64,000 nucleotides of DNA from Escherichia phage vB_EcoM-E33, in the sequence record OL780484.1, one strand, 5' to 3'. How positions within the stretch are numbered: the first letter of the stretch is position 1; each line of letters opens with the position of its first letter. Shown here in pieces: positions 3,169 through 31,913 of this stretch. Position numbers and translations under genes: made by a program. The notes under the pieces were generated by a model. That model searched no databases and was not told the DNA's origin. It saw nothing but the letters and a program-made list of their open reading frames with translations.

Positions 3169-3176
3169 GGCTTAAT

Positions 3177-3434
3177 ATGAAAACTTACCAAGAATTTATT
3201 ACAGAATCCACTTTAGTTTCTAAACGTTGGAATATGATTGTAAACGTTAAACCTTCCGGCACTGAAGTTTCTATGGCCGACCCTAATGATGACGAACTTG
3301 AGCACGCTTTTAGCTCTAAAGAAACTGACGAGAAAGTGGTTAAGCAACTGGTTGCTGATGCAGATCAACTTCGTAAAGTAGCAGATGTTGTTAAGCTGTT
3401 TACTAAGAAAGGTTTTAAACACGAAGAACGTTAA
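3177..3434 (+). CDS. internal head protein (Ip) with capsid targeting sequence
   Basis: N-terminus MKTYQEFITEST; 85 aa. Confidence 0.65.
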   Translation: MKTYQEFITESTLVSKRWNMIVNVKPSGTEVSMADPNDDELEHAFSSKETDEKVVKQLVADADQLRKVADVVKLFTKKGFKHEER

Positions 3435-13069: not shown

Positions 13070-13088
13070 GGGTTTAGTGCAAAAAGGT

Positions 13089-13117
13089 GTTTACAACCTC
13101 GTAGAGCATGATACTAT
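13089..13117 (+). promoter_or_regulatory. early promoter (GTTTAC ... TGATACTAT)
   Basis: -35 13089-13094, -10 13112-13117, conserved ATGATACTATAGACCTATCAA block. Confidence 0.55.
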
Positions 13118-13165
13118 AGACCTATCAAATAAATGAACTGAAACAACTTAAAACGGAGATACAAA

Positions 13166-13420: not shown

Positions 13421-13488
13421 GTGTGTACATATGCTTTAAACGTGTTATTATAGACCTATCAAATCTACTGAGTGAAATGGAGAATATA

Positions 13489-14820: not shown

Positions 14821-14822
14821 TT

Positions 14823-14872
14823 GTTTACATCTCCAGTAGAAATGATACTATAGACCTATCAACTACTGGAGG
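14823..14872 (+). promoter_or_regulatory. early promoter (GTTTAC, TACTAT) with inverted repeat TCTCCAGTAG/CTACTGGAGG covering the SD
   Basis: Arms carry compensatory changes relative to 2301-2343 (CTGTAG/CTACAG -> CAGTAG/CTACTG). Confidence 0.6.
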
Positions 14873-18773: not shown

Positions 18774-18996
18774 AGAATATGTAGAGGCTGCCGATAAGGC
18801 AGTCCGCGAACTTACTTTAGCTTATTATAAAGAGCATGGTAAATTTCCGGACAGTTATTCAGTATTGAAATCTGCTTTAACTCGCTCGTATAATAATATA
18901 CTATCTGATGTGTATAATTTAAAATATGAGCACATGGAAAAATATGGAACAGAACTTGACCGTTCTGAAGCATTCAAACAAATATTAGGAATTTAA
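18760..18996 (+). CDS. hypothetical protein
   Basis: 78 aa from ATG 18760 ([13 protein letters not shown]). Confidence 0.4.
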
Positions 18997-18997
18997 A

Positions 18998-19261
18998 ATG
19001 TTTAAAGTTTATGGTTATGATTCAAATATTCACCGTTGTGTTTTCTGTGATAATGCCAAACGTCTGCTTGATGTTAAGAAACAACCTTACGAATTCATTA
19101 ACGTGATGCCGGAAAAAGGCGTATTTGATGATGAGAAGATTGCTCAACTCCTGGCTGCGCTTGGTCGCGAATCTCAAATCGGTTTGACCATGCCGCAAGT
19201 ATTTGCCCCTGATGGAAGTCATATTGGTGGCTTTGACCAACTGCGAGCGTATTTCAAATGA
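18998..19261 (+). CDS. nrdC: glutaredoxin-like thioredoxin
   Basis: 87 aa; MFKVYGYDSNIHxCVxCDNAKRLL...GSHIGGFDQLRxYFK matches remembered T4 NrdC. Confidence 0.9.
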   Translation: MFKVYGYDSNIHRCVFCDNAKRLLDVKKQPYEFINVMPEKGVFDDEKIAQLLAALGRESQIGLTMPQVFAPDGSHIGGFDQLRAYFK

Positions 19262-19270
19262 TTGAATTAA
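19253..19270 (+). repeat. 18-bp direct repeat TTCAAATGATTGAATTAA (copy 1)
   Basis: Exact second copy at 19411-19428; each spans a stop/start junction. Confidence 0.7.
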
Positions 19271-19419
19271 TGTTGGTTGTTTTGTATCTTATCATCGGTA
19301 TTGGTTATGCTAAGACCCTAGCTAAATTAGATGATTCAGGTGACTTTTGTTGGTGGTTGACGTCTATGATTTGTTGGCCTTTATTTCTGGTTGGTGCTTC
19401 ATTCTGGAACTTCAAATGA
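19258..19419 (+). CDS. small membrane protein (53 aa)
   Basis: ATG overlaps nrdC stop, own stop overlaps next ATG; hydrophobic; bounded by the 18-bp direct repeats. Confidence 0.4.
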   Translation: MIELMLVVLYLIIGIGYAKTLAKLDDSGDFCWWLTSMICWPLFLVGASFWNFK

Positions 19420-19428
19420 TTGAATTAA
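19411..19428 (+). repeat. 18-bp direct repeat TTCAAATGATTGAATTAA (copy 2)
   Basis: Exact copy of 19253-19270. Confidence 0.7.
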
Positions 19429-19724
19429 ACGAACAAACCATTTTTCTAGGTGATGGTACCGAAGATGACCTGGAATATAAACTATACGAATATATGGTTT
19501 GGTTGGCTAAAGCAGAAGGTATAGACTTTGCTGTAGCCCATCCATATGGCGAGAACACTGTTGTAATCGGCGGCACCGCTTACGAAGTCCAATGGCAATA
19601 CGTTGGCCTTGAATCTGAAGAATTTGAAGAAGATGAACACGGTGATTGGCATCCAGTCGGTCCTTGGTACTGGGAACACGGTGAACCTGATTTTGAAGTA
19701 AGTAGTTGGTGGTGTGACCGTTAA
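19416..19724 (+). CDS. hypothetical acidic protein
   Basis: 102 aa from ATG 19416 (MIELNEQ...). Confidence 0.4.
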   Translation: MIELNEQTIFLGDGTEDDLEYKLYEYMVWLAKAEGIDFAVAHPYGENTVVIGGTAYEVQWQYVGLESEEFEEDEHGDWHPVGPWYWEHGEPDFEVSSWWCDR

Positions 19725-19779
19725 GCCATGGTATGTCGCTCGGTGGGATACGATAGAACCTACCGAGCCAGAGGAACCC

Positions 19780-19809
19780 GTTTACAACGATTCCGAAATA
19801 GAGTATAAT
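19780..19809 (+). promoter_or_regulatory. early promoter GTTTAC-18-TATAAT
   Basis: Consensus -35 and -10 hexamers. Confidence 0.5.
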
Positions 19810-19831
19810 GAACCTTCAAACAATGATTTAA

Positions 19832-20032
19832 TTGATATGGAATATGGGTTTTACTATGAAAACTGAACTGATTTATACTGAAAAGTTAAATGGCGGTAAA
19901 GTCTGGAAACTTCTTATTAAAGGAAGTCCTACTGATCAGTTTATGGCCACTTGTGTAGGGTTATACACCCGTCCTACCAAAAAGATGATTCGTCAATTTA
20001 AACGGTTGCATCGCTCATTTTATAATGTTTAA
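19832..20032 (+). CDS. hypothetical basic protein
   Basis: 66-aa ORF; start uncertain (19832 or 19856). Confidence 0.3.
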   Translation: MIWNMGFTMKTELIYTEKLNGGKVWKLLIKGSPTDQFMATCVGLYTRPTKKMIRQFKRLHRSFYNV

Positions 20033-20070
20033 TAAATACCTATATCTAATTATTATTAAAGGTATAGGTC

Positions 20071-21144
20071 ATGCAAGATTTCGGACATTGGGCGGTATTT
20101 GAAGAAACCGATATTAAAAACCATATTGGATTTGTATACGTAATCACTTTTGAAGATGGCAAAAAATATGTGGGTGCTAAAAAGATTTGGAAACGAATTA
20201 AAGCTGCACCTTGCACATTTAAACGCGGCCCTAAAAAAGGATTTGAAGAATCTGATTGGAAAACCTATACCTCATCATCTAATGAACTAAACGCAATGAT
20301 AGAAAAGGGTATAAGTCCTAAAGAGTACCTTATTGTAGGATGGTATCCTACTTGGGGTAAAACTCTTATGGCAGAAATGGAAATGCAATTAGCCAATGAT
20401 GTTTTACGAGACCCTATGTGGCTTAACAAGCAAATTGGCGGACATTTCAACCCTAACTGCTTTGACGATTTAACCGAAGATGATATTGCAAGATGGATGG
20501 AATTTGATAAAGGGAACGAACATGTTTCCTGGCCTATGATGTACAAAATCGGTCAGAAAACCAAATATGTTAAACCTGACGAAGTTGGCAAGTATATTAA
20601 ATCTGGGTGGCAATTTGGTCGTTCTAAAACAGAAAAACATTCTGTTACCTATAATTGCTCTAAATTTACTATATGGGACTATCAAGAAAATAAAGCAGTG
20701 GAAGTTCTAAATCAAAATGAGTTTGCTCGTAATAATGATTTAAGTAGCAACCATCTAACTAGACTACTTCAAGGAACTCTCGACCTTATTAAAGATCGCT
20801 GGGGACTTCCACCAGATATTGCTCGTCAGCGTTATAAATTTCAGGACGTTTCTTCAGGAACAAAATTTTTATCTAATTCTGAGTTAGAAGAATTTTACGG
20901 TATGACTCGCGGTCAGGCTAACAAAGCCGTTAAAGATGGAAGAGCCGTTAAATTGGTAGTCGAAAGCAAAGAAGACCACATTAAAAAACTTGGCTCTATC
21001 GAATTGGTAAAAACCGAAAAGACAAAAGTTACGTCTCAAGTAATGCTTAACAGTTTTAAAGATATAGTTAATCCTATGACCACTGCCGAAAAATCAGAAA
21101 TGATTGAATGGTTGGAAAGTTATATAACTTATTTGAAATCTTAA
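20071..21144 (+). CDS. GIY-YIG-like (Seg-type) putative homing endonuclease
   Basis: GFVYVITFEDGKKYVGAKK...WKR has GIY-x10-YIG spacing followed by basic residues; 357 aa. Confidence 0.4.
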   Translation: MQDFGHWAVFEETDIKNHIGFVYVITFEDGKKYVGAKKIWKRIKAAPCTFKRGPKKGFEESDWKTYTSSSNELNAMIEKGISPKEYLIVGWYPTWGKTLMAEMEMQLANDVLRDPMWLNKQIGGHFNPNCFDDLTEDDIARWMEFDKGNEHVSWPMMYKIGQKTKYVKPDEVGKYIKSGWQFGRSKTEKHSVTYNCSKFTIWDYQENKAVEVLNQNEFARNNDLSSNHLTRLLQGTLDLIKDRWGLPPDIARQRYKFQDVSSGTKFLSNSELEEFYGMTRGQANKAVKDGRAVKLVVESKEDHIKKLGSIELVKTEKTKVTSQVMLNSFKDIVNPMTTAEKSEMIEWLESYITYLKS

Positions 21145-31907: not shown

Positions 31908-31913
31908 ATTAAA

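Follow-up and report, generated by a model that had tools for sequence, protein, structure and literature searches.

The gene of 53 codons that follows nrdC in Escherichia phage vB_EcoM-E33 (OL780484.1) is bracketed by two perfect copies of an 18-bp sequence, TTCAAATGATTGAATTAA. According to our preferred reading, to which we assign a probability of roughly 65%, the small gene is a conserved resident of this place, the repeat became perfect through the loss of a neighbouring gene (orf81), and the similarities between the gene junctions may serve for the deletion and exchange of genes via short homologies. The 18-mer is likely to represent a substrate for further precise loss rather than the scar of a recent insertion. 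All positions given below refer to the window, i.e., the entire stretch of 64,000 nucleotides that was analysed.

The window belongs to a Dhakavirus (Straboviridae), a T4-like coliphage, with Escherichia phage WG01 as its nearest relative. Over positions 18998-19870, WG01 is 100% identical to the window, and QL01 and LHE83 are 99.8-99.9% identical. The larger segment 16000-24000 was fully matched by no record of the collection; WG01 showed 99% identity over 86% of it, and the remainder unlike WG01 resembles Bp7 and ABTNLS3. Based on these comparisons, we regard the source as a Dhakavirus of the WG01 kind, which shows a mosaic difference further downstream. In T4 nomenclature, the gene order on the + strand is nrdC.4, nrdC.2, nrdC.1, nrdC, the 53-aa ORF and 49.3. 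Judging from the ATGA overlaps, the stretch from nrdC to gene 49 is to be read as a series of small early genes forming one translationally coupled chain. The ATGA stop/start overlap at these boundaries is also present in the examined relatives from the Dhaka-, Gapriver-, Tequatro- and Marfaviruses, and longer overlaps or a gap take its place in EcS1, X20 and CHI14.

The gene upstream of the small ORF, nrdC (18998..19261, + strand), codes for a T4-type glutaredoxin/thioredoxin of 87 aa ending in AYFK, as indicated by its matches to the Pfam family Glutaredoxin (E 1.4e-07) and to phrog_22 and by the annotation of WG01. The product shares 87% amino acid identity with NrdC of T4, and the YFK in front of the stop codon is the conserved NrdC end in T4, Mosigvirus, Gaprivervirus and Dhakavirus. 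The gene downstream (19416..19724, + strand) codes for a homologue of gp49.3 with 102 aa and the start MIELNEQ, which matches phrog_4203 (E 1.5e-47) and shows 79% amino acid identity to gp49.3 of T4 over the full length. Its MIEL start is conserved in T4 and Dhakavirus and is represented by MLIEL in EcS1. The third neighbour, orf81 of the relatives treated below, is a gene for 58-62 aa (MTEFD...FEFMVEL) which matches phrog_9444, is noted in JS98 as similar to RB69 orf092c and has homologues at the same position in Marfavirus. In the records of JS98 and IME08, the small ORF is not annotated, and the start of orf81 is set too far upstream and in another frame, which should serve as a warning for annotators.

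A preliminary description of the locus had reported a perfect direct repeat, both copies of which span a stop/start overlap so that the small ORF and the following gene each begin with MIEL, and direct reading of the sequence confirms these statements. Copy 1 (junction J1, 19253..19270, + strand) consists of the nrdC end TTC AAA TGA overlapping the small-ORF start ATG ATT GAA TTA A, with the ATGA overlap at 19258..19261 (+ strand). Copy 2 (19411..19428, + strand) is a composite junction with the Phe-Lys-stop TTCAAATGA of the small ORF on its left and the gp49.3 start ATGATTGAATTAA on its right; the ATGA overlap at 19416..19419 (+ strand) would at the same time be the joint left by the loss of orf81. 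The two copies are spaced by 158 bp from start to start, and since the bases next to them differ, their identity is limited to exactly 18 bp. The 140 bp between them consist entirely of coding sequence of the 53-aa protein.

When the window was searched for the 18-mer with up to 3 mismatches, one further site was found at the start of regA (31909), compared to 0.28 expected sites, and the TTCAAATGATTGAATTAA pair is the sole perfect short-range direct repeat of at least 15 nt in the 64 kb. We also compared the 33 ATGA junctions on the + strand of the window with each other (528 pairs): the repeat pair agrees at all 14 free positions and the runner-up at 9 of 14, and the position-specific match probability for the repeat pair is about 7e-8 per junction pair. 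A chance origin of the repeat is excluded. A generic consensus of ATGA junctions was likewise rejected as its source, as no other pair of junctions agrees at more than 9 of the 14 free positions. The alternative offered in the preliminary description, that the repeat reflects the coding of two homologous N-termini, did not hold, since the small protein and gp49.3 are unrelated and show no similarity (E = 13). For FK ends in two unrelated proteins together with MIEL starts in two proteins that are likewise unrelated, we estimated a joint probability of roughly 1e-3 or less. An ancient duplication of the junction or repeated junction-mediated exchange are possible origins of these shared ends and starts.

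The small ORF itself (19258..19419, + strand; MIEL...NFK) matches phrog_6756 of the PHROG category 'unknown function' over residues 1-53 (profile positions 1-55 of 56, E 7.7e-30); a Pfam search gave no family over the cut-off, with DUF5504 reaching 16.4 bits vs. a cut-off of 27. The label of a membrane ORF, under which the gene had been described before, is supported by hydrophobic stretches at about residues 1-18 and 30-50 (Kyte-Doolittle), as expected of a predicted two-helix membrane protein. Homologues were found by tblastn in 110 phage records, of which 72 show at least 80% identity and belong to Dhakavirus and Gaprivervirus. The remaining 38 records, all with less than 60% identity (about 43-53% at the amino acid level among the matches listed), belong to Escherichia phage EcS1 and to phages that infect Klebsiella, Serratia, Erwinia, Pectobacterium and Kosakonia. 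Carriers of the gene include Dhakavirus, Gaprivervirus, Kagamiyamavirus, Winklervirus and Marfavirus. The gene is located directly 3' of nrdC in every locus examined, or one ORF away (Winklervirus X20, CHI14), and no copy was seen at a non-nrdC locus among the loci examined from the 110 records. The alignment of the family shows Y10, GIGY, KTL, WP and the C-terminal FWNFK as invariant, and the latter persists in phages whose NrdC has a different end, YLK (EcS1, X20) or TYK (F48). Because FWNFK is invariant despite these differing nrdC ends, the TTCAAATGA in copy 2 represents the coding end of the small gene itself and not a duplicated nrdC tail. We conclude from the distribution and conservation of the family that the small ORF is to be regarded as an old resident gene and not as a recent insert.

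Among the relatives compared, at least five arrangements of the slot after nrdC can be told apart. In T4 and P922, nrdC is directly followed by 49.3, with one junction of the sequence TTtAAATGATaGAATTAA, and Mosigvirus ST0 is of the same type. The arrangement nrdC/small ORF/49.3 of the window is shared by WG01, QL01, Bp7, dhaeg, P479 and CJ20; the two junctions match each other at 18/18 positions in the window, WG01 and QL01 and at 15-17/18 in Bp7, dhaeg, P479 and CJ20, with 15/18 for P479 and 17/18 for CJ20. The three-gene state nrdC/small ORF/orf81/49.3 is present in IME341, IME281, JS98, IME08, VR5 and VR26, with a small protein of 53-55 aa. CLB_P2 and NC-G carry nrdC/orf81/49.3 without the small ORF and with the junction TTCAAATGACC(A/G)AATTT, and VR20 and VR25 retain a 9-codon remnant of orf81 (MIDEFMVEL) between the small ORF and 49.3. 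Colinearity with the window was seen in 18 of the best 40 megablast rows, and the other 22 contain about 175 extra bp. The identical 18-mer is found at J1 of WG01, QL01, IME341, IME281, P479 and VR5/20/25/26, with 16-17/18 matching positions in other relatives, and the perfect 18/18 pair is limited to the clade of WG01, QL01 and the window. The synonymous positions of the repeat vary among the relatives (TTC/TTT, TTA/CTA, and A/T at position 18). The PST-like contigs in the sample (L021-L025) have different genes after nrdC.

The origin of the perfect second copy can be proposed from the junctions of the three-gene state. There, J1 reads TTCAAATGATTGAATTA(A/T), J2 reads TT(C/T)AAATGAC(C/T)GAATTTG, i.e., TTCAAATGAC(C/T)GAATTTG, and J3 reads G(A/G)(A/G)TTATGATTGAATTAA. 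In the undeleted phages IME341 and JS98, J1 and J2 have TTCAAATGA..GAATT in common (16 nt at 88-94%), J1 and J3 have ATGATTGAATTA(A) in common (12-13 nt at 100%), and J2 and J3 share ATGAnnGAATT. The two halves of copy 2 are split by an orf81 of 173-185 bp in IME341, JS98 and IME08. The phage IME341 (L016) is very close to the window in the small ORF (100% amino acid and 97.5% nucleotide identity) and in 49.3 (99% and 96.4%), and the start-to-start distance across the small ORF is 158 bp in both. The window corresponds to IME341 minus 173 bp, with colinear flanks and with the ATGA motifs of J2 and J3 as the exact limits of the missing segment. Because the removal of these 173 bp joins the left half of J2 to the right half of J3, it would create a second perfect J1, TTCAAATGATTGAATTAA. 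We infer from this comparison that copy 2 of the window is the deletion joint of an orf81 loss, including the direction of the event. The perfect second copy had previously been ascribed to the gain of the small ORF, and it would instead have arisen through the loss of its neighbour.

Because homologues of orf81 are placed alike in Marfavirus, the three-gene state was probably ancestral to Dhakavirus and Gaprivervirus. Parsimony and the genus-level distribution also favour gene loss in T4, Mosigvirus and CLB_P2 over an insertion in the lineage of the window. Grouped by the pairs of junctions involved, the joints can be written as J2xJ3 for the window, WG01, QL01, Bp7, dhaeg and CJ20, as J1xJ2 for CLB_P2 and NC-G, and as J1xJ3 for T4 and P922. 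The joint of P479 differs (ATGAACGAATTAA), as would be expected if a separate crossover had taken place within the GAATT block. Together with the partial deletion in VR20/VR25 and the differing flanking haplotypes of the two-gene phages, it suggests that orf81 was lost independently more than once.

The preliminary description had interpreted the repeat as the footprint of an insertion. Spelled out, the small gene would have entered a T4-like nrdC/49.3 junction, and the junction would have been doubled, be it as a target-site duplication or because a donor genome recombined unequally with the recipient. One part of this interpretation stands: T4 and P922, which lack the ORF, indeed carry one junction copy at nrdC, matching the 18-mer at 16/18 positions. 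Moreover, a junction duplication of 22-23 bp brackets 49.3 in Mosigvirus, so such events do occur in the slot. The part that does not stand is a recent insertion with a duplicated target, as the ORF occupies this place in 110 records from several genera, with amino acid identities as low as 43-53%. The invariant FWNFK in phages with nrdC ends of YLK or TYK further argues against a left half of copy 2 copied from nrdC, and copy 2 appears to have been assembled by the loss of orf81. Finally, neither a mobility gene nor terminal inverted repeats were found in the 140 bp between the copies, and the gene was seen at no other locus among those examined. We therefore consider this explanation unlikely, with an ancient version of it, before the split of these genera, as a possible form.

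We propose that the locus evolves by precise loss and exchange of small genes at its junctions. The left half of the repeat is set by the conserved C-termini of NrdC (...YFK) and of the small protein (...FWNFK) and the right half by the MIEL N-terminus which the small protein has in common with gp49.3. On the way to the window, orf81 would have been removed exactly from ATGA to ATGA. The junction similarities may act as short homologies, either via replication slippage or via the recombination system of the phage itself, and would allow precise, in-register deletion of gene cassettes as well as their exchange with co-infecting relatives, leaving the neighbours intact and coupled. The deletion products may then spread through homologous recombination. 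The 18-bp repeat around the small ORF would provide the substrate for the next loss, leading to a nrdC/49.3 junction of the T4 type. Both the role of the repeats in mediating the events and the direction of these events are proposed from comparing the junctions. All natural joints fall inside the shared junction motif, are gene-precise and keep the ATGA overlap.

An independent parallel, which strengthens the short-homology reading, is found in Mosigvirus (ST0, L026), where the 3' end of nrdC, AACTGCGAGAATATTTTAAATG[A], recurs beyond 49.3 as a perfect direct repeat of 22-23 bp, so that 49.3 lies between the two copies. The two copies are 315 bp apart, and the second one is non-coding. In the contig L027, 49.3 is missing, and nrdC is joined straight to the next gene with one repeat copy. 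Two counterpoints concern the role of the repeats in general. Since nrdC and 49.3 are homologous between the phages, recombination in these flanks could move an existing indel without any junction repeats. Selection alone would also filter deletions to gene boundaries, because only deletions from ATGA to ATGA spare the neighbours.

A further explanation takes the repeat as a coincidence of conserved coding, in which FK ends and MIEL starts coincide by chance, the identity at the DNA level follows from AT-rich codon preference, and the indels arise by other routes. Each half of the repeat is indeed under protein-level constraint in its own family, the variable synonymous positions and the clade-specific 18/18 match are consistent with this explanation, and MIE- starts also occur elsewhere, e.g., in regA at 31909. 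However, the repeat pair is an extreme outlier among the 528 junction pairs, and every natural deletion joint lies inside the shared motif, with P479 and VR20/VR25 showing alternative crossover points in the same short homologies. The repeat around 49.3 in Mosigvirus even includes non-coding sequence. In view of these observations, we give little credence to coincidence as an explanation.

The 18-mer might also be a functional signal selected at both junctions, such as a termination-reinitiation element or a hairpin UUCAA-AUGA-UUGAA which displays the overlap in its loop. TTCAA and TTGAA are reverse complements around the ATGA and are paired at both copies in the predicted RNA fold, and there is no strong Shine-Dalgarno sequence at either junction. 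However, the other 31 ATGA junctions of the window are devoid of such a motif, the stem consists of merely 5 A/U-rich pairs, the folding of the region is no better than that of shuffled sequence (z = 0.84), and the T4 sequence TTTAAATGATAGAA breaks the stem. A selected signal thus appears very improbable.

The divergence pattern is consistent with exchange at the locus. Compared to VR20, the window shows nucleotide identities of 86.5% in nrdC, 94.9% in the small ORF and 80.6% in 49.3. In comparisons with 11 relatives, which share phylogeny, we found 0.02-0.14 synonymous differences per conserved codon in the small ORF, 0.12-0.30 in nrdC and 0.10-0.36 in 49.3. For most of the 11 relatives, the small ORF has values 2-5 times lower than both of its flanks, and for a few the margin over one flank is smaller; a mismatch map shows a conserved block from the last nrdC codons to the start of 49.3. 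A constraint at the nucleotide level, e.g., by an overlapping element, was rejected as the cause, as no excess conservation of the small ORF was found in independent clades (Marfavirus; EcS1 vs. X20). A mosaic history is, therefore, the more likely reading of the low synonymous divergence. Recombination breakpoints right at the junction were not found in P922 and P479, both of which have theirs inside 49.3.

If read in this way, the locus offers a clean natural series in which T4-like phages gain and lose small accessory genes and the translationally coupled operon stays undamaged. Sequenced isolates represent the three-gene state, each of the three deletion products and a remnant, so deletion and exchange via short homologies in the hyperplastic regions of phages could conveniently be measured at this locus. 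In the literature, we found nothing specific on the nrdC/49.3 locus of WG01 or Bp7, and deletions of T4 between short direct repeats did not turn up in a full-text search either.

The nearest system described so far is that of the PeSLs of T4-like phages, repeated early-promoter/stem-loop motifs on both sides of ORFans, which are cut out or brought in when the motifs recombine (Arbiol et al. 2010, PMC2839356). The present locus resembles PeSL cassettes (PMC2839356, PMC4122927) in that small genes of unknown function, located in hyperplastic regions of T4-like genomes, have short repeats on both sides, that the flanked gene is precisely present or absent in close relatives (with at least five architectures in the present slot), and that cassettes are proposed to be lost or gained by recombination between repeats with the neighbours unharmed. 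In contrast, PeSLs are intergenic, at least 50 bp long and present in many dispersed copies, whereas the repeat described here comprises 18 bp of coding sequence at a stop/start overlap and is restricted to neighbouring boundaries within a single slot, with two copies and one site with 3 mismatches in 64 kb. The present cassettes also appear to be promoterless and reliant on translational coupling. A sigma-70-type promoter search gave a weak 9/12 match over copy 1 (19233-19262) and none over copy 2, and the strong 11/12 sites at 18865 and 19781 lie outside the repeats. No terminator-like site was found on the + strand at or between the copies. An identity with PeSLs was rejected for want of a convincing promoter, stem-loop or dispersed family.

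A more far-reaching idea is that PeSL or integron cassettes have a counterpart without promoters in the nrdC-to-gene-49 slot of T-even-like phages, where small ORFs are bounded by the shared coding junction TTYAAATGAYYGAATT, kept for in-register excision, re-insertion and swapping among co-infecting phages. We regard this as a rather doubtful proposal. If true, each cassette would be expressed at once by translational coupling, and the low synonymous divergence of the small ORF in Dhakavirus and Gaprivervirus would record recent sweeps.

The target-site duplications of transposons are similar in that a short segment is enclosed by a direct repeat, of which 'empty' relatives carry one copy. They differ from the present case, in which both repeat halves belong to conserved coding sequences of their own and the second copy seems to have been made by a deletion, and in which there is no transposase, no terminal inverted repeat and no copy at other loci. 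This type of duplication was rejected, as it fails in three of four features. In lambdoid phages, short conserved boundary or linker sequences between genes are preferred crossover points for the swapping of modules. These linkers are usually discussed for the exchange of alternative modules between genomes and not as tandem repeats around one small gene.

The present repeats instead fit the class of deletions between short direct repeats. Comeau et al. (2014, PMC4122927) ascribed an exchange of g49.2/.3 in phage PST to recombination between small homologies other than PeSLs and invoked the short-homology deletion between direct repeats described by Albertini et al. (1982). As in such deletions, the end points would lie in short direct repeats of the undeleted genome with one hybrid copy remaining, and the joints of CLB_P2 and T4 fit this hybrid-copy pattern like that of the window. 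The present case differs in that the homologies are not random but consist of conserved terminal codons plus the ATGA overlap, and because of this composition, deletions between them would automatically be gene-precise and keep the coupling. It also differs in offering a full set of single and double deletion products in natural isolates. Rather than a new kind of element, we consider the locus a tidy new example of the known plasticity of phage genomes in a known variable region.

At synonymous sites, the small membrane-protein ORF between nrdC and 49.3 (window 19258-19419) is more conserved than both of its flanking genes in Dhakavirus and Gaprivervirus, the difference being 2-5 fold in most comparisons; the Gaprivervirus loci compared with the window ORF were L012, L018-L020, L040 and L041. 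This excess of conservation was not seen in Marfavirus, nor between EcS1 and X20. The pattern suggests that the segment carrying the small ORF has spread horizontally and recently, with a local constraint on this stretch as a less likely source of the same synonymous conservation.

The small ORF is complete yet unannotated in the RefSeq records of JS98 (1761-1922 of locus L002) and IME08 (1150-1317 of locus L004). In both records, the annotated start of the gene that follows it, orf81/orf77, falls within the small ORF in a different frame, and an ATGA-coupled start (ATGACCGAATTT / ATGACTGAATTT) agrees better with the other genomes than the annotated one does. In the window, the ATGA overlap within each copy of the 18-bp direct repeat is flanked by the reverse complements TTCAA and TTGAA (19253-19266 and 19411-19424), an arrangement that would place the stop/start overlap in the loop of a weak hairpin with a 5-bp stem. 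At the T4 junction this stem is not preserved.

A second direct repeat was found around gene 49.3 of the Mosigvirus phage ST0 and a related IMG/VR contig, where a perfect 22-23-bp repeat of the nrdC 3' end lies on both sides of 49.3 (882-903 and 1197-1218 in the ST0 locus, L011; 1742-1764 and 2057-2079 in the contig, L026) and the second copy, after 49.3, is non-coding. Another related contig (L027) lacks 49.3 and contains one repeat copy at about 1761. The Mosigvirus repeat is a cleaner insertion/deletion footprint than the 18-mer pair of the window. Another cassette-sized deletion lies downstream of the 18-mer pair, at a distance of a few hundred bases (window ~19841-19856): about 480 bp of Bp7 and JS98, coding for the short Pin-like protease inhibitor and, next to it, an ORF of 100 aa, are missing from the window and from WG01.

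The place of gene 49 (endonuclease VII) of WG01 is taken in the window by a 357-aa ORF on the plus strand (20071-21144, within the region 20025-21144) with a SegE-type GIY-YIG domain (PF19835, E 9.5e-34). No endonuclease VII homologue was detected across the 64-kb window, the sole exception being a stretch of 13 residues at the very C-terminal end of the 357-aa ORF. Bp7 has a counterpart of the 357-aa ORF with 85% amino acid identity, and a tblastn search of its complete genome (168,066 bp) with endonuclease VII gave no matches at E ≤ 1. Dhaka-type endonuclease VII (at least 95% identity) occurs in 42 records, which do not include Bp7, ABTNLS3, PSD9, FB or LQ5. Either a non-orthologous protein has taken the place of the T4 resolvase/packaging endonuclease, or the T4-like phages concerned do without gp49.

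In the window, a 41-nt repeat (TGTTTACA...N...TATAGACCTATCAA) is present in three copies (13088-13128, 13422-13462 and 14822-14862), which look like T4-type early promoters and may represent PeSL-like elements of the upstream hyperplastic region. The motif ATATGAAAACTTA(T/C)...AATTTAT is common to three gene starts (1893-1923, 2807-2837 and 3175-3205) encoding MKTY.(E/Q)FI. These genes are probably paralogous ip genes, their shared start resembling the N-terminal capsid-targeting sequence common to T4 internal proteins.
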